Source: Escherichia coli
GTDB taxonomy: Bacteria > Pseudomonadota > Gammaproteobacteria > Enterobacterales > Enterobacteriaceae
Assembly (NCBI RefSeq): GCF_050320075.1
Contig: NZ_CP190021.1
DNA length: 64,000 nucleotides
Strand: one strand, 5' to 3'
Shown here: piece by piece, positions 4,961-15,792 of the stretch
How positions within the stretch are numbered: the first letter of the stretch is position 1
Layout: the number at the start of each line of letters is the position of its first letter
Notes under the pieces: generated by a model
The model's database searches: none
Seen by the model: only the letters and a program-made list of their open reading frames with translations
What the model was told of the DNA's origin: nothing
Translations under genes and position numbers: made by a program

Positions 4961-5780
4961 GGCACTGTTGCAAATAGTCGGTGGTGATAAACTTATCATC
5001 CCCTTTTGCTGATGGAGCTGCACATGAACCCATTCAAAGGCCGGCATTTTCAGCGTGACATCATTCTGTGGGCCGTACGCTGGTACTGCAAATACGGCAT
5101 CAGTTACCGTGAGCTGCAGGAGATGCTGGCTGAACGCGGAGTGAATGTCGATCACTCCACGATTTACCGCTGGGTTCAGCGTTATGCGCCTGAAATGGAA
5201 AAACGGCTGCGCTGGTACTGGCGTAACCCTTCCGATCTTTGCCCGTGGCACATGGATGAAACCTACGTGAAGGTCAATGGCCGCTGGGCGTATCTGTACC
5301 GGGCCGTCGACAGCCGGGGCCGCACTGTCGATTTTTATCTCTCCTCCCGTCGTAACAGCAAAGCTGCATACCGGTTTCTGGGTAAAATCCTCAACAACGT
5401 GAAGAAGTGGCAGATCCCGCGATTCATCAACACGGATAAAGCGCCCGCCTATGGTCGCGCGCTTGCTCTGCTCAAACGCGAAGGCCGGTGCCCGTCTGAC
5501 GTTGAACACCGACAGATTAAGTACCGGAACAACGTGATTGAATGCGATCATGGCAAACTGAAACGGATAATCGACGCCACGCTGGGATTTAAATCCATGA
5601 AGACGGCTTACGCCACCATCAAAGGTATTGAGGTGATGCGTGCACTACGCAAAGGCCAGGCCTCAGCATTTTATTATGGTGATCCCCTGGGCGAAATGCG
5701 CCTGGTAAGCAGAGTTTTTGAAATGTAAGGCCTTTGAATAAGACAAAAGGCTGCCTCATCGCTAACTTTGCAACAGTGCC
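4961..5780 (+). mobile_element. IS26 copy 1 (820 bp)
   Basis: GGCACTGTTGCAAA terminal repeats at both ends; internal tnpA. Confidence 0.95.
5006..5728 (+). CDS. tnpA: IS26 transposase Tnp26
   Basis: 240-aa ORF MNPFKGRHFQRDIILWAVRWYCKYGISYREL... Confidence 0.95.
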   Translation: MLMELHMNPFKGRHFQRDIILWAVRWYCKYGISYRELQEMLAERGVNVDHSTIYRWVQRYAPEMEKRLRWYWRNPSDLCPWHMDETYVKVNGRWAYLYRAVDSRGRTVDFYLSSRRNSKAAYRFLGKILNNVKKWQIPRFINTDKAPAYGRALALLKREGRCPSDVEHRQIKYRNNVIECDHGKLKRIIDATLGFKSMKTAYATIKGIEVMRALRKGQASAFYYGDPLGEMRLVSRVFEM

Positions 5781-5903
5781 GGATTATGTCCACGATAAGC
5801 ACCTGGGTCGATTCCTGGGAGGCGGCCATGAGGGTAGGGAAGCGCCGTCCCGTCAAGTCAGCGTAATGCTCTGCCAGTGTTACAACCAATTAACCAATTC
5901 TGA

Positions 5904-6719
5904 TTAGAAAAACTCATCGAGCATCAAATGAAACTGCAATTTATTCATATCAGGATTATCAATACCATATTTTTGAAAAAGCCGTTTCTGTAATGAAGGA
6001 GAAAACTCACCGAGGCAGTTCCATAGGATGGCAAGATCCTGGTATCGGTCTGCGATTCCGACTCGTCCAACATCAATACAACCTATTAATTTCCCCTCGT
6101 CAAAAATAAGGTTATCAAGTGAGAAATCACCATGAGTGACGACTGAATCCGGTGAGAATGGCAAAAGCTTATGCATTTCTTTCCAGACTTGTTCAACAGG
6201 CCAGCCATTACGCTCGTCATCAAAATCACTCGCATCAACCAAACCGTTATTCATTCGTGATTGCGCCTGAGCGAGACGAAATACGCGATCGCTGTTAAAA
6301 GGACAATTACAAACAGGAATCGAATGCAACCGGCGCAGGAACACTGCCAGCGCATCAACAATATTTTCACCTGAATCAGGATATTCTTCTAATACCTGGA
6401 ATGCTGTTTTCCCGGGGATCGCAGTGGTGAGTAACCATGCATCATCAGGAGTACGGATAAAATGCTTGATGGTCGGAAGAGGCATAAATTCCGTCAGCCA
6501 GTTTAGTCTGACCATCTCATCTGTAACATCATTGGCAACGCTACCTTTGCCATGTTTCAGAAACAACTCTGGCGCATCGGGCTTCCCATACAATCGATAG
6601 ATTGTCGCACCTGATTGCCCGACATTATCGCGAGCCCATTTATACCCATATAAATCAGCATCCATGTTGGAATTTAATCGCGGCCTCGAGCAAGACGTTT
6701 CCCGTTGAATATGGCTCAT
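5904..6719 (-). CDS. aph(3')-Ia: Aminoglycoside 3'-phosphotransferase APH(3')-Ia (kanamycin/neomycin resistance)
   Basis: 271-aa ORF MSHIQRETSCSRPRLNSNMDADLYGYKWARDNVGQSGATIYRLYGKP...; flanked by direct IS26 copies (Tn4352-like). Confidence 0.95.
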   Translation of the reverse strand: MSHIQRETSCSRPRLNSNMDADLYGYKWARDNVGQSGATIYRLYGKPDAPELFLKHGKGSVANDVTDEMVRLNWLTEFMPLPTIKHFIRTPDDAWLLTTAIPGKTAFQVLEEYPDSGENIVDALAVFLRRLHSIPVCNCPFNSDRVFRLAQAQSRMNNGLVDASDFDDERNGWPVEQVWKEMHKLLPFSPDSVVTHGDFSLDNLIFDEGKLIGCIDVGRVGIADRYQDLAILWNCLGEFSPSLQKRLFQKYGIDNPDMNKLQFHLMLDEFF

Positions 6720-6806
6720 AACACCCCTTGTATTACTGTTTATGTAAGCAGACAGTTTTATTGTTCATGATGATATATTTTTATCTTGTGCAATGTAACA
6801 TCAGAG

Positions 6807-7626
6807 GGCACTGTTGCAAATAGTCGGTGGTGATAAACTTATCATCCCCTTTTGCTGATGGAGCTGCACATGAACCCATTCAAAGGCCGGCATTTTCAGC
6901 GTGACATCATTCTGTGGGCCGTACGCTGGTACTGCAAATACGGCATCAGTTACCGTGAGCTGCAGGAGATGCTGGCTGAACGCGGAGTGAATGTCGATCA
7001 CTCCACGATTTACCGCTGGGTTCAGCGTTATGCGCCTGAAATGGAAAAACGGCTGCGCTGGTACTGGCGTAACCCTTCCGATCTTTGCCCGTGGCACATG
7101 GATGAAACCTACGTGAAGGTCAATGGCCGCTGGGCGTATCTGTACCGGGCCGTCGACAGCCGGGGCCGCACTGTCGATTTTTATCTCTCCTCCCGTCGTA
7201 ACAGCAAAGCTGCATACCGGTTTCTGGGTAAAATCCTCAACAACGTGAAGAAGTGGCAGATCCCGCGATTCATCAACACGGATAAAGCGCCCGCCTATGG
7301 TCGCGCGCTTGCTCTGCTCAAACGCGAAGGCCGGTGCCCGTCTGACGTTGAACACCGACAGATTAAGTACCGGAACAACGTGATTGAATGCGATCATGGC
7401 AAACTGAAACGGATAATCGGCGCCACGCTGGGATTTAAATCCATGAAGACGGCTTACGCCACCATCAAAGGTATTGAGGTGATGCGTGCACTACGCAAAG
7501 GCCAGGCCTCAGCATTTTATTATGGTGATCCCCTGGGCGAAATGCGCCTGGTAAGCAGAGTTTTTGAAATGTAAGGCCTTTGAATAAGACAAAAGGCTGC
7601 CTCATCGCTAACTTTGCAACAGTGCC
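6807..7626 (+). mobile_element. IS26 copy 2
   Basis: Terminal repeats identified; same orientation as copy 1. Confidence 0.95.
6852..7574 (+). CDS. tnpA: IS26 transposase
   Basis: 240-aa ORF nearly identical to copy 1 (one difference, D vs G near the C-terminus). Confidence 0.95.
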   Translation: MLMELHMNPFKGRHFQRDIILWAVRWYCKYGISYRELQEMLAERGVNVDHSTIYRWVQRYAPEMEKRLRWYWRNPSDLCPWHMDETYVKVNGRWAYLYRAVDSRGRTVDFYLSSRRNSKAAYRFLGKILNNVKKWQIPRFINTDKAPAYGRALALLKREGRCPSDVEHRQIKYRNNVIECDHGKLKRIIGATLGFKSMKTAYATIKGIEVMRALRKGQASAFYYGDPLGEMRLVSRVFEM

Positions 7627-7695
7627 GGATTGAATATAACCGACGTGACTGTTACATTTAGGTGGCTAAACCCGTCAAGCCCTCAGGAGTGAATC

Positions 7696-8601
7696 ATGAC
7701 CGTAGTCACGACCGCCGATACCTCCCAACTGTACGCACTTGCAGCCCGACATGGGCTCAAGCTCCATGGCCCGCTGACTGTCAATGAGCTTGGGCTCGAC
7801 TATAGGATCGTGATCGCCACCGTCGACGATGGACGTCGGTGGGTGCTGCGCATCCCGCGCCGAGCCGAGGTAAGCGCGAAGGTCGAACCAGAGGCGCGGG
7901 TGCTGGCAATGCTCAAGAATCGCCTGCCGTTCGCGGTGCCGGACTGGCGCGTGGCCAACGCCGAGCTCGTTGCCTATCCCATGCTCGAAGACTCGACTGC
8001 GATGGTCATCCAGCCTGGTTCGTCCACGCCCGACTGGGTCGTGCCGCAGGACTCGGAGGTCTTCGCGGAGAGCTTCGCGACCGCGCTCGCCGCCCTGCAT
8101 GCCGTCCCCATTTCCGCCGCCGTGGATGCGGGGATGCTCATCCGTACACCGACGCAGGCCCGTCAGAAGGTGGCCGACGACGTTGACCGCGTCCGACGCG
8201 AGTTCGTGGTGAACGACAAGCGCCTCCACCGGTGGCAGCGCTGGCTCGACGACGATTCGTCGTGGCCAGATTTCTCCGTGGTGGTGCATGGCGATCTCTA
8301 CGTGGGCCATGTGCTCATCGACAACACGGAGCGCGTCAGCGGGATGATCGACTGGAGCGAGGCCCGCGTTGATGACCCTGCCATCGACATGGCCGCGCAC
8401 CTTATGGTCTTTGGTGAAGAGGGGCTCGCGAAGCTCCTCCTCACGTATGAAGCGGCCGGTGGCCGGGTGTGGCCGCGGCTCGCCCACCACATCGCGGAGC
8501 GCCTTGCGTTCGGGGCGGTCACCTACGCACTCTTCGCCCTCGACTCGGGTAACGAAGAGTACCTCGCTGCGGCGAAGGCGCAGCTCGCCGCAGCGGAATG
8601 A
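7696..8601 (+). CDS. mph(A): Macrolide 2'-phosphotransferase Mph(A)
   Basis: 301-aa ORF MTVVTTADTSQLYALAARHGLKLHGPLTVNELGLDYRIV...; high-GC codon usage; followed by mrx and mphR. Confidence 0.95.
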   Translation: MTVVTTADTSQLYALAARHGLKLHGPLTVNELGLDYRIVIATVDDGRRWVLRIPRRAEVSAKVEPEARVLAMLKNRLPFAVPDWRVANAELVAYPMLEDSTAMVIQPGSSTPDWVVPQDSEVFAESFATALAALHAVPISAAVDAGMLIRTPTQARQKVADDVDRVRREFVVNDKRLHRWQRWLDDDSSWPDFSVVVHGDLYVGHVLIDNTERVSGMIDWSEARVDDPAIDMAAHLMVFGEEGLAKLLLTYEAAGGRVWPRLAHHIAERLAFGAVTYALFALDSGNEEYLAAAKAQLAAAE

Positions 8602-9836
8602 GCGAACGTCGATATAGCCCGCTCGCGACGCTGTTCGCGGCGACCTTTCTCTTCCGGATCGGCAACGCGGTGGCGGCCCTCGCGCTTCCATGGTTCGTCC
8701 TGTCTCATACAAAGAGCGCGGCCTGGGCGGGCGCCACGGCCGCTAGCAGCGTCATCGCGACCATCATCGGCGCGTGGGTTGGTGGTGGCCTCGTCGATCG
8801 GTTCGGGCGCGCGCCCGTCGCATTGATCTCGGGTGTGGTGGGCGGCGTGGCCATGGCGAGCATCCCACTGCTCGATGCCGTTGGCGCCCTCTCGAACACT
8901 GGGCTGATCGCTTGCGTGGTGCTCGGTGCCGCGTTCGACGCACCCGGTATGGCCGCGCAGGACAGTGAGCTGCCCAAACTCGGCCACGTCGCCGGGCTCT
9001 CCGTTGAGCGCGTCTCGTCACTGAAAGCGGTGATCGGGAACGTCGCGATTCTAGGTGGCCCGGCCCTTGGGGGGGCCGCAATCGGCCTGCTTGGCGCTGC
9101 GCCAACGCTCGGGCTGACGGCGTTCTGCTCCGTCCTTGCAGGTCTGCTCGGCGCGTGGGTGCTTCCCGCGCGTGCCGCTCGGACGATGACCACGACGGCG
9201 ACTCTCTCCATGCGCGCCGGCGTCGCTTTTCTCTGGAGCGAACCCCTGCTGCGCCCTCTCTTTGGTATAGTGATGATCTTCGTGGGCATCGTTGGCGCCA
9301 ACGGCAGCGTCATCATGCCTGCGCTGTTTGTAGATGCAGGACGCCAAGTAGCAGAGCTCGGGCTGTTCTCCTCAATGATGGGGGCTGGTGGTCTCCTTGG
9401 CATTGCCATTCATGCGTCGGTCGGCGCCCGGATATCAGCGCAGAACTGGCTGGCGGTGGCATTTTGTGGCTCTGCGGTGGGCTCGCTTCTGCTTTCACAG
9501 TTGCCAGGCGTGCCGGTGCTGATGTTGTTGGGCGCGCTCGTGGGACTGCTGACCGGCTCAGTCTCTCCCATTCTCAACGCTGCCATCTACAACCGCACGC
9601 CGCCAGAACTTCTCGGCCGGGTACTCGGCACGGTCTCGGCGGTGATGCTGTCAGCCTCGCCCATGGTTATGCTTGCGGCCGGCGCGTTTGTCGACCTTGC
9701 TGGTCCGCTCCCTGGCCTCGTTGTATCGGCCGTGTTTGCGGGGCTCGTGGCTCTACTCTCGCTCCGTCTTCAATTTGCTACAATGGCGGCGGCAGCCACA
9801 GCCTCCGCCCCAACCCATACAGAAGGTGAACACTGA
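8598..9836 (+). CDS. mrx: MFS-type membrane protein Mrx
   Basis: 412-aa hydrophobic ORF overlapping the mph(A) stop; canonical mph(A)-mrx-mphR(A) order. Confidence 0.9.
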   Translation: MSERRYSPLATLFAATFLFRIGNAVAALALPWFVLSHTKSAAWAGATAASSVIATIIGAWVGGGLVDRFGRAPVALISGVVGGVAMASIPLLDAVGALSNTGLIACVVLGAAFDAPGMAAQDSELPKLGHVAGLSVERVSSLKAVIGNVAILGGPALGGAAIGLLGAAPTLGLTAFCSVLAGLLGAWVLPARAARTMTTTATLSMRAGVAFLWSEPLLRPLFGIVMIFVGIVGANGSVIMPALFVDAGRQVAELGLFSSMMGAGGLLGIAIHASVGARISAQNWLAVAFCGSAVGSLLLSQLPGVPVLMLLGALVGLLTGSVSPILNAAIYNRTPPELLGRVLGTVSAVMLSASPMVMLAAGAFVDLAGPLPGLVVSAVFAGLVALLSLRLQFATMAAAATASAPTHTEGEH

Positions 9837-10420
9837 TGCCCCGCCCCAAGCTCAAGTCCGATGACGAGGTACTCGAGGCCGCCACCGTAGTGCTGAAGCG
9901 TTGCGGTCCCATAGAGTTCACGCTCAGCGGAGTAGCAAAGGAGGTGGGGCTCTCCCGCGCAGCGTTAATCCAGCGCTTCACCAACCGCGATACGCTGCTG
10001 GTGAGGATGATGGAGCGCGGCGTCGAGCAGGTGCGGCATTACCTGAATGCGATACCGATAGGCGCAGGGCCGCAAGGGCTCTGGGAATTTTTGCAGGTGC
10101 TCGTTCGGAGCATGAACACTCGCAACGACTTCTCGGTGAACTATCTCATCTCCTGGTACGAGCTCCAGGTGCCGGAGCTACGCACGCTTGCGATCCAGCG
10201 GAACCGCGCGGTGGTGGAGGGGATCCGCAAGCGACTGCCCCCAGGTGCTCCTGCGGCAGCTGAGTTGCTCCTGCACTCGGTCATCGCTGGCGCGACGATG
10301 CAGTGGGCCGTCGATCCGGATGGTGAGCTAGCTGATCATGTGCTGGCTCAGATCGCTGCCATCCTGTGTTTAATGTTTCCCGAACACGACGATTTCCAAC
10401 TCCTCCAGGCACATGCGTAA
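9836..10420 (+). CDS. mphR(A): TetR-family repressor MphR(A)
   Basis: 194-aa ORF immediately after mrx. Confidence 0.9.
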   Translation: MPRPKLKSDDEVLEAATVVLKRCGPIEFTLSGVAKEVGLSRAALIQRFTNRDTLLVRMMERGVEQVRHYLNAIPIGAGPQGLWEFLQVLVRSMNTRNDFSVNYLISWYELQVPELRTLAIQRNRAVVEGIRKRLPPGAPAAAELLLHSVIAGATMQWAVDPDGELADHVLAQIAAILCLMFPEHDDFQLLQAHA

Positions 10421-10858
10421 ACGGAGGTGTGCAGAGTCCCTGCGGCAGGCGACGAACACGACCGTCGTCGATTAGTACCGGTACGGTCGGTGGTATCGAA
10501 GTCTTGATCACCACTCAGGTCTACGGCTTACAAATGGTGACCATCCCGATACTTGCGTCAGAGCACCGGGCCGATTCTTTGACAGTGAATCACTCCCGTA
10601 AGGTTGTGCCGGTGTGGGTGTCCCGGGTCGAGACGATACTCCGCCAATGCGCCCAGCAAACAACCTGGCCATCGCAGGTGGTGGGGAGCGGTGTGGCGGA
10701 TGAGTTGGACAAGTTGGTGTAGCAGCACGAGCACGGCGAGATAACATCGCAGGAGTTCGACATGCTCAAGAGACAGCTGATTGCGAATCGCGATGCAGAT
10801 TCATAACCCGATTGCGGGTTGGCTTCACTCCACCATCACCGAGCAGACTAGCACGGCG

Positions 10859-11297
10859 GGCTCTGTTGCAAAGATTGGCGGCAGTCAGAGGTAGGCTGTC
10901 GCTCTGCGCCGATCAGGCGGCTGCTGCGAAATGGTGGTTGAGCATGCCCATGGCCTCCGTCAGCGCCGAGGGCCCAATGCCAAAAGCTCTCTCCACAAGG
11001 CGCACCTCGCCCCTGATGCCGGGCTGCAGGCACCAGGGGCGAGCCTGTCCTTTGCGCAGGGCTCGCATGACTTCGAATCCCTTGATCGTGGCATAGGCCG
11101 TGGGGATCGATTTGAAACCGCGCACCGGCTTGATCAGTATCTTGAGCTTTCCGTGATCGGCCTCGATCACGTTATTGAGATACTTCACCTGCCGGTGGGC
11201 CGTCTCCCGGTCCAGCTTTCCTTCGCGCTTCAATTCGGTGATCGCTGCACCATAGCTCGGCGCTTTGTCGGTATTGAGCGTGGCAGGCTTTTCCCAG
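10859..11297 (-). mobile_element. IS6100 remnant (IR plus 3' part of tnpA), truncated by IS26 copy 3
   Basis: GGCTCTGTTGCAAAGATTGGCGGCAGTCAGAGG end at 10859; IS6-family tnpA C-terminal translation on the minus strand runs into the IS26 terminal repeat. Confidence 0.8.
10913..11297 (-). pseudogene. tnpA: IS6100 transposase 3' fragment
   Basis: Translation WEKPATLNTDKAPSYGAAITELKREGK... is IS6-family but distinct from IS26; the N-terminal 16 residues of the ORF are read from the IS26 end. Confidence 0.8.
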
Positions 11298-12117
11298 GGC
11301 ACTGTTGCAAAGTTAGCGATGAGGCAGCCTTTTGTCTTATTCAAAGGCCTTACATTTCAAAAACTCTGCTTACCAGGCGCATTTCGCCCAGGGGATCACC
11401 ATAATAAAATGCTGAGGCCTGGCCTTTGCGTAGTGCACGCATCACCTCAATACCTTTGATGGTGGCGTAAGCCGTCTTCATGGATTTAAATCCCAGCGTG
11501 GCGCCGATTATCCGTTTCAGTTTGCCATGATCGCATTCAATCACGTTGTTCCGGTACTTAATCTGTCGGTGTTCAACGTCAGACGGGCACCGGCCTTCGC
11601 GTTTGAGCAGAGCAAGCGCGCGACCATAGGCGGGCGCTTTATCCGTGTTGATGAATCGCGGGATCTGCCACTTCTTCACGTTGTTGAGGATTTTACCCAG
11701 AAACCGGTATGCAGCTTTGCTGTTACGACGGGAGGAGAGATAAAAATCGACAGTGCGGCCCCGGCTGTCGACGGCCCGGTACAGATACGCCCAGCGGCCA
11801 TTGACCTTCACGTAGGTTTCATCCATGTGCCACGGGCAAAGATCGGAAGGGTTACGCCAGTACCAGCGCAGCCGTTTTTCCATTTCAGGCGCATAACGCT
11901 GAACCCAGCGGTAAATCGTGGAGTGATCGACATTCACTCCGCGTTCAGCCAGCATCTCCTGCAGCTCACGGTAACTGATGCCGTATTTGCAGTACCAGCG
12001 TACGGCCCACAGAATGATGTCACGCTGAAAATGCCGGCCTTTGAATGGGTTCATGTGCAGCTCCATCAGCAAAAGGGGATGATAAGTTTATCACCACCGA
12101 CTATTTGCAACAGTGCC
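11298..12117 (-). mobile_element. IS26 copy 3 (inverted relative to copies 1 and 2)
   Basis: Terminal repeats at 11298 and 12117; tnpA on minus strand. Confidence 0.95.
11350..12072 (-). CDS. tnpA: IS26 transposase
   Basis: 240-aa ORF identical to copy 2. Confidence 0.95.
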   Translation of the reverse strand: MLMELHMNPFKGRHFQRDIILWAVRWYCKYGISYRELQEMLAERGVNVDHSTIYRWVQRYAPEMEKRLRWYWRNPSDLCPWHMDETYVKVNGRWAYLYRAVDSRGRTVDFYLSSRRNSKAAYRFLGKILNNVKKWQIPRFINTDKAPAYGRALALLKREGRCPSDVEHRQIKYRNNVIECDHGKLKRIIGATLGFKSMKTAYATIKGIEVMRALRKGQASAFYYGDPLGEMRLVSRVFEM

Positions 12118-12550
12118 CCACAAAATCCCCACGGCAGGCCTGATACGTTATGCCGTTCAGCTCCACCTCCAGATCAGTGGCAGAAGTGCCATCTGCGGGC
12201 AGACCTGCTGCCGGGACCAGCGGCAGTACGACGACTTCTGCCGCACGCTGTTCTGCCCGGAGGCGGTCCTGTTCTGTCAGCAGCAGAGGCTGTGCCACGG
12301 CCCGGCCGGCGTCCGTCAGCTCCACTGCCAGCTGCAGGTTCGGAGCGCGCAGGGTACGCAGCCAGCCGGCATCCTCCAGACGACGGCAGGAGGCGCGCAG
12401 GTTTGGCCCGTAGACCGGGGCTTCCCCGCTTCGCTCCAGCACCCGTTCTATGTCCCGCGTCAGCACGGGTCCTGGCCGTTTTTCATCAAGGGCAGCCAGC
12501 ACAATCAGCACTCTCCGCTGCAGTGGCGACGGTCGGCGGCTCTGAGTCAT
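12118..12550 (-). pseudogene. GC-rich gene of unknown function, 3' end truncated by IS26 copy 3
   Basis: ORF MTQSRRPSPLQRRVLIVLAALDEKRPGPVLTRDIERVLE... ends in GHCCK read from the IS26 terminal repeat; start overlaps the upstream gene stop. Confidence 0.6.
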
Positions 12551-12816
12551 TTCCAGTCATCCTCCGGCCAGATGAGCTTTCTGAGGCGCTGAAAGTCGGC
12601 GTCAATGAGCTCCTGTCTCTTTATGGCATTCATTGAGGCATAGCCATTTATGGCCAGTTCATGCCAGAAGATCAGCACGGCTCCGGCTTTGGCTGACTCG
12701 CAGAGATAAATCGCGCCCTGGCTGTCCAGATTGCATTCCCGGATGCGTCGTTCCGTAAACCGGGTTAGTTGTTCATAGCTGAGTGAAAACACCCTTTCTT
12801 CATCCATCCTGCACAC
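12547..12816 (-). CDS. Hypothetical protein, first gene of a two-gene operon
   Basis: 89-aa ORF translationally coupled to the truncated downstream gene. Confidence 0.5.
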   Translation of the reverse strand: MCRMDEERVFSLSYEQLTRFTERRIRECNLDSQGAIYLCESAKAGAVLIFWHELAINGYASMNAIKRQELIDADFQRLRKLIWPEDDWK

Positions 12817-12837
12817 TCCATCTGATAATGTTCTTAA

Positions 12838-12937
12838 AGGTAAAAATCACATCCTGCATGATTTGTGTGTTATTGATTTATGATAATATCAGGTATGGTT
12901 TTATATTTAATGGTGAAAATCACATCAGATATGATTT
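12838..12937. promoter_or_regulatory. Two ~26-bp direct repeats (GGTRAAAATCACATC-N4-ATGATTT) in an AT-rich intergenic region; candidate operator/res sub-sites
   Basis: Repeats at 12838-12863 and 12911-12937 read from sequence. Confidence 0.5.
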
Positions 12938-13375
12938 TATGTGTGCTGCTTAATTATCATATCTCCTGCCCGTTCTCTGCCGCACAGATCCGGTTTCCGG
13001 CTGTTACGGATCTTCCTCTCCCTCCGCACAGCGCCATCTCCCGTCAGCACAACATGTAGTGCTGAATTCAGCTGCTGATGACACTATATGTTGTGTCATC
13101 TCCCTGACCTGTGATGCGCCGCGCAGGGGCGGAAAACAGCGATATGATGATTTTCTCAGCGTGGTACACTTCCGGAAAGTTGTGATATTCCGGAAAGTCG
13201 GATCTGACGGAAACGGCTCTCCGGTAATTTAACGGCGTGGTTATATGGATGCTTGTTATCATGGTGATGATGATAACGGCATGATGTTATCAGACGGCGT
13301 GACGGTAAGGGCAGTGATGATGGATGACGTTATCGCATGACCGTCCCTGCCCGGAAAAGAAAAAAGGAGTCACCC

Positions 13376-13789
13376 ATGTTTTTTATTGAGAATGAAGGTC
13401 AGGCTGTCGCCGGAACGGATTACTGGCAGTCTGTACAGGCGCAGGCCGGATATGTCTACCTCAGCTGGAATGCCGGCGCAGCCAGGCTGCTTGTCCCGGA
13501 TGCGGCAAAACATTTACTCAGGGAGATGCGGGGGGCTGAGTACGTCATCATCAGTAAGGGAGCACTGCATGGCCGCGATGCGCTGGAACTGGTATTTGAA
13601 GACGGCAGCGATGCGCCGTTTGTGATCCACATGCTGAGTGAGCAGTGCGATCGCCTGCTCCCCGAAAACAACCAGGGAGGGGGTTTTGTTGTCACCGTCT
13701 GGACGCGTGGAGGTAACCAGCTCCGTTATCCGGGAAAGTACCGTGTTGTGGAAAACCTGCCCGACGTTTCCCCGTGGAGTGAACACTGA
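13376..13789 (+). CDS. Hypothetical protein translationally coupled to the downstream recombinase
   Basis: ATG at 13376 with AGGAG RBS (ORF track starts earlier at 13337); stop TGA overlaps TGATATG start of the recombinase. Confidence 0.6.
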   Translation: MFFIENEGQAVAGTDYWQSVQAQAGYVYLSWNAGAARLLVPDAAKHLLREMRGAEYVIISKGALHGRDALELVFEDGSDAPFVIHMLSEQCDRLLPENNQGGGFVVTVWTRGGNQLRYPGKYRVVENLPDVSPWSEH

Positions 13790-13790
13790 T

Positions 13791-14576
13791 ATGCAGCACC
13801 TGCCGGCACCGATCCACCATGCCCGGGATGCTGCTCAGCTTCCTGTTGCCATCGATTATCCGGCAGCGCTGGCACTCCGCCAGATGTCGATGGTTCATGA
13901 TGAACTGCCAAAATACCTGCTGGCCCCTGAAGTGAGCGCCCTGCTCCATTACGTGCCGGATCTGCGCCGCAAAATGCTGCTGGCCACACTGTGGAACACC
14001 GGTGCGCGCATTAATGAAGCACTGGCGCTGACGCGGGGGGATTTTTCGCTTGCGCCTCCGTATCCGTTTGTGCAGTTGGCCACTCTGAAGCAGCGGACCG
14101 AAAAAGCCGCCAGGACGGCAGGAAGAATGCCCGCCGGTCAGCAGACTCACCGGCTGGTTCCGCTCTCTGACGCCTGGTACGTCAGCCAGCTGCAGACGAT
14201 GGTGGCCACACTGAAAATCCCCATGGAACGGCGTAATAAACGAACAGGCAGGACAGAGAAAGCGCGGATCTGGGAAGTGACGGACAGAACGGTCAGGACC
14301 TGGATTGGGGAGGCGGTTGCCGCCGCTGCCGCTGATGGAGTGACGTTCTCTGTCCCGGTCACGCCACATACGTTCCGCCATTCCTATGCGATGCACATGC
14401 TGTATGCCGGTATACCGCTGAAGGTCCTGCAGAGTCTGATGGGGCATAAGTCCATCAGCTCAACGGAGGTCTACACGAAGGTCTTTGCGCTGGATGTCGC
14501 GGCGCGTCATCGTGTGCAGTTCGCCATGCCGGAAGCCGATGCGGTAGCGCTGATAAAACAACTTGAGAGGCGTTAA
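13791..14576 (+). CDS. Tyrosine site-specific recombinase (XerD/ResD-like, probable multimer resolvase)
   Basis: C-terminal HTFRHSYAMHMLYAG...LMGHKSISSTEVYTKV motifs (catalytic R-H-R-Y region); probable start MQHLPAP at 13791 within track ORF 13638-14576. Confidence 0.8.
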   Translation: MQHLPAPIHHARDAAQLPVAIDYPAALALRQMSMVHDELPKYLLAPEVSALLHYVPDLRRKMLLATLWNTGARINEALALTRGDFSLAPPYPFVQLATLKQRTEKAARTAGRMPAGQQTHRLVPLSDAWYVSQLQTMVATLKIPMERRNKRTGRTEKARIWEVTDRTVRTWIGEAVAAAAADGVTFSVPVTPHTFRHSYAMHMLYAGIPLKVLQSLMGHKSISSTEVYTKVFALDVAARHRVQFAMPEADAVALIKQLERR

Positions 14577-15159: not shown

Positions 15160-15792
15160 ATGGCCTGGATAGTTGGTTTTATTTCTCAGAAAGGTGGTGT
15201 GGGCAAAAGCACTAAAGCGAGAGCGTTAGCGCGTGAAGCATCCGCCTGTGGTATCAAAACAAAATTAGCTGATCTCGACTTGGAACAGGCAACGAGTGCT
15301 GAGTGGCATCGTAGACGTCTGTCAGCTGGTTTGTCACCGGTTGCTTCCGTTGAAGTGTTTTCAACAGCAAAGCAGGCGATAGAATCTGCCGGCGATTTTG
15401 ACCTTCTGATTCTTGATGGCCCTGCTCGTGCAAGTAAAGGTACTTCAGAAATTGCTAAGGTCGCCGACCTTATCGTCCAGCCAACGGGAGCCTCCCTTGA
15501 CGATCTTGTCCCGGCAATTAAAGTTTTCAACGCGTTGGTAAAAGAAGGTATACCACGTTCAAAACTGGTCTTCGCTTTAAGCCGGGTAGGTACCGAAGCG
15601 GAAGAGCTGGATGCTCGTGCATATATCAGTGAAGCAGGTTATGAAACTTTATCTGGATGCCTTTTTGAGAAGCCAGCATACAGAAAAGCGATGAATTCAG
15701 GACTCGCTGTGACAGAAACACGTTATAAAGGTTTAAACGAGAGAGCTGATGAACTTATCCAGGCACTCATCGATAAGATTGGAGAAGAGTAA
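15160..15792 (+). CDS. parA: ParA-family Walker ATPase (small type Ib partition ATPase)
   Basis: 210-aa ORF with deviant Walker A KGGVGKST. Confidence 0.9.
   Translation: MAWIVGFISQKGGVGKSTKARALAREASACGIKTKLADLDLEQATSAEWHRRRLSAGLSPVASVEVFSTAKQAIESAGDFDLLILDGPARASKGTSEIAKVADLIVQPTGASLDDLVPAIKVFNALVKEGIPRSKLVFALSRVGTEAEELDARAYISEAGYETLSGCLFEKPAYRKAMNSGLAVTETRYKGLNERADELIQALIDKIGEE

Follow-up and report, generated by a model that had tools for sequence, protein, structure and literature searches.

A gene pair truncated by IS26 is, by its sequence, a remnant of the plasmid operon ydfA-ydeA, which probably encodes its own winged-helix repressor

In a 64,000-nucleotide stretch of Escherichia coli DNA from contig NZ_CP190021.1 (the window), two overlapping genes on the minus strand, the second of which runs into a copy of IS26, are identified by sequence comparison as the promoter-proximal remnant of ydfA-ydeA, a conserved operon of the IncI1 plasmid backbone. 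The product of the second gene, YdeA, would be a winged-helix (MarR/PadR-like) DNA-binding protein, a dimer of which is predicted to bind three palindromic operators of the form AAAATCATAy-N5-rTATGATwTT. These putative operators, O1, O2 and O3, lie approximately 36.5 bp apart and bracket and overlap the predicted ydfA promoter, so that their occupation would repress the operon itself. YdfA, a small three-helix protein coupled to YdeA, may be either a modulator of YdeA or a co-regulated payload, and transcripts escaping repression would run on into downstream accessory genes, such as ibfA in R64-type plasmids. We infer the binding of YdeA, the repression, the position of the promoter and the role of YdfA, and consider it probable that YdeA represses its own operon, from which transcription continues into variable cargo. 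The gene names and the co-transcription of the pair were already known; the fold assignment, the three-operator architecture linked to YdeA and the evidence against a toxin-antitoxin system are added here.

The 150-bp leader of ydfA, which has a GC content of 30%, contains a direct repeat at 12834-12864 and 12907-12937, the copies of which are 81% identical and 73 nucleotides apart. An earlier, sequence-only reading of the window had described an AT-rich leader with two 26-bp direct repeats; the composition and the repeats stand, though the repeats are 31 nucleotides long and each is palindromic. Both hold the palindrome AAATCA-N9-TGATTT, and in the interval between these exact copies there is a third, degenerate one. 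In the window as a whole two exact occurrences and one with a single mismatch were found, against 0.21 expected, and none of 100 shuffled versions reached three.

The sites were compared across 25 loci with a ydfA-type gene, taken from plasmid records and species genomes, in which the identity of YdfA to that of the window falls as low as 33%. The core ATCA-N9-TGAT is present 44 times in the 160 bp upstream of ydfA, corresponding to 11 sites per kb compared with 0.15 per kb in the remainder of these loci, an enrichment of about 70-fold, while the upstream regions, when shuffled, contained on average 0.15 sites in total and at most 2. The sites fall at three fixed positions with respect to the ydfA ATG, with the core at -55/-56 (O1) in 17 of the loci, an exact core at -92/-93 (O2) in 13 and the core at -128 to -130, most often -128/-129, (O3) in 14; in plasmid pSD107 O3 is a perfect 11-1-11 palindrome. 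The half-sites AAAATCATA and TATGATTTT are constant across the loci and the centres are variable. The same half-sites are seen ahead of ydeA genes that stand alone in Yersinia, and ahead of a homolog with only about 30% identity (TAATCA-N9-TGATTA). As the half-sites occur upstream of ydeA where ydfA is lacking, the motif travels with YdeA and not with YdfA.

The right half of O2 is conserved as TGATATGAT, which has the form of an extended -10 element; the version in the window is TGATATTAT (12891-12883). Reading the sequence from this element places the predicted transcription start at about 12876, 69 nucleotides upstream of the ydfA ATG, in agreement with an independent BProm prediction that puts the promoter 103 bp, and the start 69 bp, ahead of ydfA (PMC12111858). 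Relative to this predicted promoter O3 would abut the -35 element, O2 would lie over the -10 element and O1 would extend from about +14 to +30, which is a layout typical of repression.

In the AlphaFold model of YdeA (mean predicted local distance difference test score, pLDDT, 87.5) a winged helix at residues 9-78 is followed by a long helix at 80-104, a poorly defined linker and a beta-rich C-terminal domain at 127-190, made up of five strands, a helix and a sixth strand. The modelled winged helix is MarR/PadR-like, and the model thus combines a winged helix-turn-helix with a likely dimerisation helix. Of the regulator-effector pair that had been suggested from the sequence, the regulator half fits, given the predicted winged helix and repeats that behave as its operators would. 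YdfA is modelled as a generic three-helix bundle (pLDDT 84.8) without a toxin fold. Domain searches, which had been proposed, were run against Pfam, NCBIfam, PADLOC and PHROGs, and no match of YdfA, of YdeA or of the adjoining 137-residue open reading frame (ORF) exceeded the thresholds. A match of YdeA to phrog_19460 (E 4e-7) covers the winged helix only and carries no assigned function, and matches to JetA, GSDH, NAD-synthase and FxSxx were discarded as noise. Sequence-profile searches of the PDB with the C-terminal domain of YdeA (A5) and with YdfA (A2) returned nothing meaningful. Some relatives of YdeA carry a further extension of 100-230 residues.

Several observations weigh against an autorepressor acting in this way. 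O2 is degenerate in IncI1 plasmids, including that of the window, where O1 and O3 are intact. A scan of the leader with the sigma-70 consensus called no promoter on the minus strand and a single plus-strand match at chance level. The similarity of YdeA to known regulators is below the family cutoffs, at 15.2 bits against 25 for AbiEi_4, 16.8 against 24.8 for PaaX and 15.8 against 27 for MarR_2. Neither the C-terminal domain of YdeA nor YdfA has recognisable relatives, and the roles given to them are therefore guesses. In addition, YdeA proteins that are 97% identical are paired with YdfA alleles that are just 61% identical, which would be awkward for a tight and specific complex.

Full-length matches to the 1.2-kb region containing the pair, with identities reaching 99.9%, are found in at least 670 PLSDB plasmids, the majority of them IncI1/I-gamma plasmids from E. 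coli and Salmonella. Recovery of the intact locus from related plasmids, as had been recommended, was possible: in pSD107 the order is yagA, colicin Ia, imm and a DUF6404 gene, followed on the opposite strand by genes for 196 and 86 residues, and this pair is divergent from the 137-residue ORF, a tyrosine recombinase, parA and parM. The 196-residue protein (WP_000194561) is named 'YdeA protein' and the 86-residue protein 'YdfA protein' in UniRef, and the names ydfA and ydeA are in use in PMC12111858, PMC8004404 and PMC3438092. In the window ydeA starts at the ATG at 12550-12548 and keeps its native codons down to 12118, the retained part being identical to residues 1-144 of WP_000194561. The remaining 52 residues (145-196) are missing and are replaced by GHCCK, read from IS26 as far as a stop at 12101, as had been noticed from the sequence. 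In the AlphaFold model the cut interrupts strand three of the C-terminal beta domain. The YdfA sequence shows 100% identity to WP_000343102, for which the RefSeq start corresponds to the ATG at 12807; the ORF first proposed is real, though its boundary at 12816 is an in-frame GTG three codons upstream of this start.

The coupled arrangement seen at the outset was confirmed, and annotations of IncI, IncF and Enterobacter plasmids show the same ATGA junction. The downstream gene is also the more GC-rich, as described, at 66% for ydeA compared with 52% for ydfA. A foreign or mosaic origin of ydeA, which this jump could suggest, was rejected because the GC content at third codon positions is alike in the two genes (0.62 in ydfA and 0.64-0.67 in ydeA). 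The difference, judged from the sequence, is one of codon positions 1 and 2, in a protein rich in Ala, Arg, Gly, Pro and Leu. Compared with diverged alleles the ratio of nonsynonymous to synonymous substitution rates (Ka/Ks) is 0.27-0.50 for ydfA and 0.2-0.5 over both genes, indicating that both are under purifying selection.

Searching with YdeA by tblastn gave matches in at least 5,000 of 72,556 PLSDB plasmids; among the matches listed 4,968 cover at least 80% of the query and the homologs are annotated as hypothetical throughout. The identity of YdeA is 95-100% in IncI1 plasmids, 83% in E. coli IncF plasmids, which have a 169-residue form, and 63% in Klebsiella IncFIB(K)/FII(K) plasmids, while Enterobacter IncFII plasmids have long forms of 301-403 residues. 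The family is narrow, with only 221 representatives among 1.84 billion clusters at 50% identity, and a scan of one genome per species, run with a closer alignment (A4), gave 26 loci, essentially all in genera of Enterobacterales. A ydfA-type gene, of at least three strongly diverged types, precedes most ydeA genes. The two genes are linked in most relatives and their intact homologs are not housekeeping genes, in accord with the operon linkage first proposed. Solo ydeA genes are found in Yersinia and in more distant or metagenomic relatives, and also in Edwardsiella, which has a different gene in the upstream position. In at least two other plasmids an intact ydfA stands beside a ydeA independently disrupted by IS26 or a frameshift, with the N-terminal part of YdeA kept each time, and substitutions breaking inside ydeA have been reported (PMC8004404).

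Two further observations concern the distribution. A 226-residue chimera (P0201) has an unrelated N-terminus joined to YdeA at residue ~149 ('DGSTCLQLW...'), one more recombination joint within ydeA, as would be expected if cargo exchange often has its boundary there. Copies of ydfA/ydeA that are 65-100% identical to those of enterobacteria are found on four contigs assigned to Clostridia, Terrisporobacter or Lachnospiraceae (L025, L031, L037 and L040), three of them from metagenome-assembled genomes and one a 493-bp low-coverage contig in the assembly of a Terrisporobacter isolate; these are probably misbinned or contaminant enterobacterial plasmid contigs.

Other readings of the locus were weighed against autorepression by YdeA. 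The sequence-only reading had allowed for a toxin-antitoxin pair inactivated by the insertion, and a type II toxin-antitoxin or abortive-infection system, with YdfA as antitoxin and YdeA as toxin or with the roles reversed, would be in keeping with small, coupled, plasmid-borne genes that have palindromes upstream, as in autoregulated toxin-antitoxin loci, with the weak AbiEi_4 winged-helix match in YdeA (E 0.02) and with the phage-defence genes adjoining the locus in R64-type and ColIb-type plasmids. No toxin or antitoxin family or fold, however, is matched by either protein, a nucleotidyltransferase partner of the AbiEii type is absent and the two genes do not show obligate co-occurrence. 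Full-length ydeA without ydfA in several lineages makes YdeA unlikely to be a toxin needing YdfA, and the persistence of ydfA with a cut or frameshifted ydeA, in the window and the other plasmids, weakens the version in which YdfA is the toxin, though the N-terminus of YdeA stays. Conserved palindromes at the operon's own predicted promoter would suit a toxin-antitoxin locus and an ordinary autorepressor alike. A toxin-antitoxin or abortive-infection pair would seem very unlikely. It is also improbable that YdeA is an architectural or centromere-type DNA-binding protein, with the palindromes serving as a partition site or, at the neighbouring rfsF and tyrosine recombinase, as an accessory site in multimer resolution. 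The repetition and phasing of the sites would suit such a role, as would the position of the module beside rfsF, the tyrosine recombinase and ParA in IncI1 plasmids and pFRI-6 (PMC8004404), and a ParA-like gene follows the solo ydeA of Yersinia pekkanenii. Against this, the spacing between the sites and the ydfA start codon is constant, and the sites overlap the predicted -10 element. In addition, where the module together with its sites is carried by Klebsiella IncFIB(K) or E. coli IncF plasmids, its neighbours are arsR, ParDE or an intron, and neither a recombinase nor ParA is close by. The ydfA-ydeA operon itself contains no NTPase gene, and those ParA genes that are present each have their own small downstream gene, including the one in the window (15160-15792), which lies beyond the recombinase. 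YdeA resembles TubR no more closely than it does other winged-helix proteins.

The alleles of the two genes bear on a further reading, in which YdfA is the real payload, a fast-evolving effector acting on a host or phage target, and YdeA is its dedicated repressor, with no physical interplay between them. Between pEC931_2 and the window YdeA is 97% identical with a Ks of 0.06, whereas YdfA is 61% identical with a Ks of 0.83, from which it follows that ydfA alleles recombine independently of ydeA; this swapping, together with the strongly diverged YdfA types, would favour a payload. So would the comparison of IncI1 with E. coli IncF alleles, in which Ka/Ks is approximately 1.1 for ydfA and 0.32 for ydeA at the same Ks, and which may reflect diversifying selection on YdfA, although this estimate comes from very few substitutions in 258 nucleotides. 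The conserved ATGA coupling, on the other hand, is more usual with stoichiometric partners, and YdfA has no recognisable effector fold. Taken together a free-standing payload appears unlikely, and autorepression by YdeA, with YdfA as modulator or co-regulated product, remains the preferred reading. A bolder form of this would make YdeA a cargo gate, shutting the promoter that feeds an accessory or defence region (ibfA, DpdC-like genes and others), with the fast-evolving YdfA as a sensor or anti-repressor opening it on a signal such as phage infection or entry into a new host; this, or alternatively a new abortive-infection or addiction module whose folds have so far had no connection with toxicity, is a rather doubtful proposition. 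The coordinates of the features are collected in Table 1.

Table 1. Positions in the window of the ydfA-ydeA remnant, its predicted control elements and the adjoining IS26 region.
Feature	Coordinates	Strand	Description
ydeA, truncated	12118-12550	minus	native codons 1-144 of 196
ydfA	12547-12807	minus	intact, 86 residues; predicted three-helix bundle
ATGA overlap	12547-12550	minus	ydfA stop TGA (12549-12547) over ydeA ATG; 4 nucleotides; translational coupling
IS26	11298-12117	minus (transposase)	rightmost of three direct copies; outer end cuts ydeA
IS26-bounded resistance region	4961-12117		three IS26 in the same orientation: 4961-5780, 6807-7626, 11298-12117
Putative operator O1	12844-12864		palindrome AAATCAcatcctgcaTGATTT; core ATCA-N9-TGAT at -55 from ydfA ATG
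Putative operator O2	12883-12899		ACCATACCTGATATTAT on the minus strand; degenerate here; overlaps predicted extended -10
Putative operator O3	12917-12937		palindrome AAATCAcatcagataTGATTT; core at -128; just upstream of predicted -35
Predicted ydfA promoter	12876-12911	minus	weak -35 ATTAAA 12911-12906; extended -10 TGaTATTAT 12891-12883
Conserved stretch upstream of O3	12940-12999		CCGGAAAyCGGATCTGyGCGGC...GATATGATAAT (alignment A3)

The element that cuts ydeA is an 820-bp IS26 with 14-bp terminal inverted repeats (GGCACTGTTGCAAA at 11298 and, reversed, ending at 12117) and a minus-strand transposase matching the IS6 family (E 2e-82). It has no 8-bp target duplication, the flanking letters being TTTCCCAG and CCACAAAA, and matching 8-bp flanks are likewise absent from each of the three IS26 copies in the window. 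The window begins with the IncI1 replicon and yacABC, after which the resistance region has the order IS26, aph(3')-Ia, IS26, mph(A)-mrx-mphR(A), truncated IS6100 and IS26. As the copies lack target duplications, the IncI1 variable region, from ~4960, just past repZ-yacABC, to codon 144/145 of ydeA, has been swapped out through IS26-mediated events. The operon here has thus lost the C-terminal domain of YdeA together with all of its cargo. Neither PLSDB nor a set of 5,426 complete E. coli genomes contained the exact junction of IS26 with ydeA; apparent full-coverage matches to it were rejected, each consisting of two separate pieces 400-800 bp apart. The truncated ydeA is an ordinary by-product of the IS26-driven assembly of a resistance region and has little significance by itself.

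On the other side of the operon, the conserved stretch upstream of O3 is found with the module on plasmids of the IncI and IncF(K) groups and of Enterobacter. An Rfam scan of 11900-13900 gave only a spurious sub-threshold miRNA match, with no known RNA element in the leader. The plus-strand sigma-70-like match is at 12880-12907 (ATGATA-16-TATATT), between O1 and O3 and overlapping O2, and points towards rfsF and the recombinase; the putative operators could control a divergent promoter too. Between the ydfA leader and the operon of the 137-residue ORF and tyrosine recombinase, where rfsF, the multimer-resolution site, has been placed (PMC8004404), there are inverted repeats (CACAACATGTAGTG / CACTATATGTTGTG and TCAGCACAACA / TGTAGTGCTGA) and two copies of a perfect 11-nucleotide direct repeat, TTCCGGAAAGT, in the stretches 13044-13095 and 13170-13198.

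Evidence for expression of the operon comes from published work. By reverse transcription PCR ydfA, ydeA, ibfA and proQ/finO were found on one transcript in an R64-type plasmid (PMC12111858, published in 2025), in a study of ibfA, a phage-defence gene encoding an ATPase-TOPRIM protein related to HEC-04, in which ydfA and ydeA were not separately studied; the arrangement of ibfA in R64-type plasmids is taken from this paper and from PMC8004404. Both ydfA and ydeA are transcribed in pS88, where they are listed as conserved hypothetical proteins (PMC3438092), YdfA (WP_000343102) has been detected by riboproteogenomics in Salmonella (PMC10117744) and the Klebsiella homologs of both proteins have been detected by proteomics. 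None of the papers found in a literature search assigns a function to ydfA or ydeA. In a genome-wide association study of IncK2 plasmids the plasmid ydeA was taken as the chromosomal L-arabinose exporter of the major facilitator superfamily, and a hypothesis involving chicken feed was founded on this (PMC12987596). This is probably a collision of gene names, the plasmid ydeA encoding an unrelated 196-residue protein predicted to contain a winged helix.

The genes that follow ydeA vary from locus to locus, and most of them share its strand. They include ibfA, a gene for a 350-residue hypothetical protein followed by proQ/finO, a gene for a 164-residue 'DNA-binding protein' followed by one for an Hha-domain protein, and a gene for a DpdC-like DUF6884 protein (PADLOC E 2e-43); in other cases YdeA itself has a C-terminal extension. 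No common third gene was present among the loci compared, the cargo being heterogeneous. The DpdC-like gene is directly after ydeA in loci of Enterobacter, Citrobacter and Pluralibacter (L009, 6569-7093; L020, an ORF of 226 residues; and L027), where no other dpd genes are evident. In ColIb-type plasmids the DUF6404 gene (ybaA; 5478-5825 in L001) is convergent with ydeA; it is absent from the window, and it fits in position and length the ColIb-P9 'ibfA' of PMC8004404, associated with T5/BF23 exclusion. If the two are the same, both IncI1 lineages would have a phage-exclusion gene after ydeA, and both genes would be deleted in the window.

The module, for which there is no family model, is carried by plasmids of the IncI, IncF and IncFIB(K)/FII(K) groups, including major carriers of resistance and virulence, and is situated at the edge of the plasmid variable region, where defence and resistance cargo is exchanged. 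The operator motif and the proposed autorepressor make an unusually widespread hypothetical gene pair experimentally approachable, and could explain how adjacent cargo such as ibfA is controlled.

Like the autorepressors of the MarR, PadR and HxlR families, YdeA is predicted to act at palindromic sites of about 21 bp that overlap its own promoter. It differs from them in reaching no family threshold and in having an orphan beta-rich C-terminal domain (127-190), and the operon differs in its coupled small helical partner upstream and its three phased putative operators in place of one or two. The AbiEi antitoxin of the type IV AbiE system has a comparable architecture, with an N-terminal winged helix and a C-terminal domain, is autoregulated through inverted repeats and is linked to phage defence on mobile elements. 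In contrast, the match of YdeA to AbiEi is below the Pfam cutoff and its partner is an upstream 86-residue helical protein, not a downstream toxin; no AbiEii (DUF1814) nucleotidyltransferase was found in the window or in the intact loci. Repressors of the KorA/KorC and ArdK type are small DNA-binding proteins with repeated palindromic operators, placed first in an operon whose transcription continues into variable plasmid genes. This is the same kind of layout as that proposed for ydfA-ydeA, though there is no sequence relationship; within the window no regulon of YdeA was found beyond its own promoter. The closest comparison is with the IncI1 plasmids R64, ColIb-P9 and pUA1135, and also with pS88 and other IncF plasmids, which have the same gene order, ATGA coupling and leader. 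In the IncI1 plasmids the operon occupies the same position as in the window, between the variable region and rfsF, the resolvase and parA. The copy in the window differs in that codons 145-196 of ydeA are gone and all downstream cargo, such as ybaA, imm and cia or ibfA, proQ/finO and yagA, is replaced by the IS26-bounded region.

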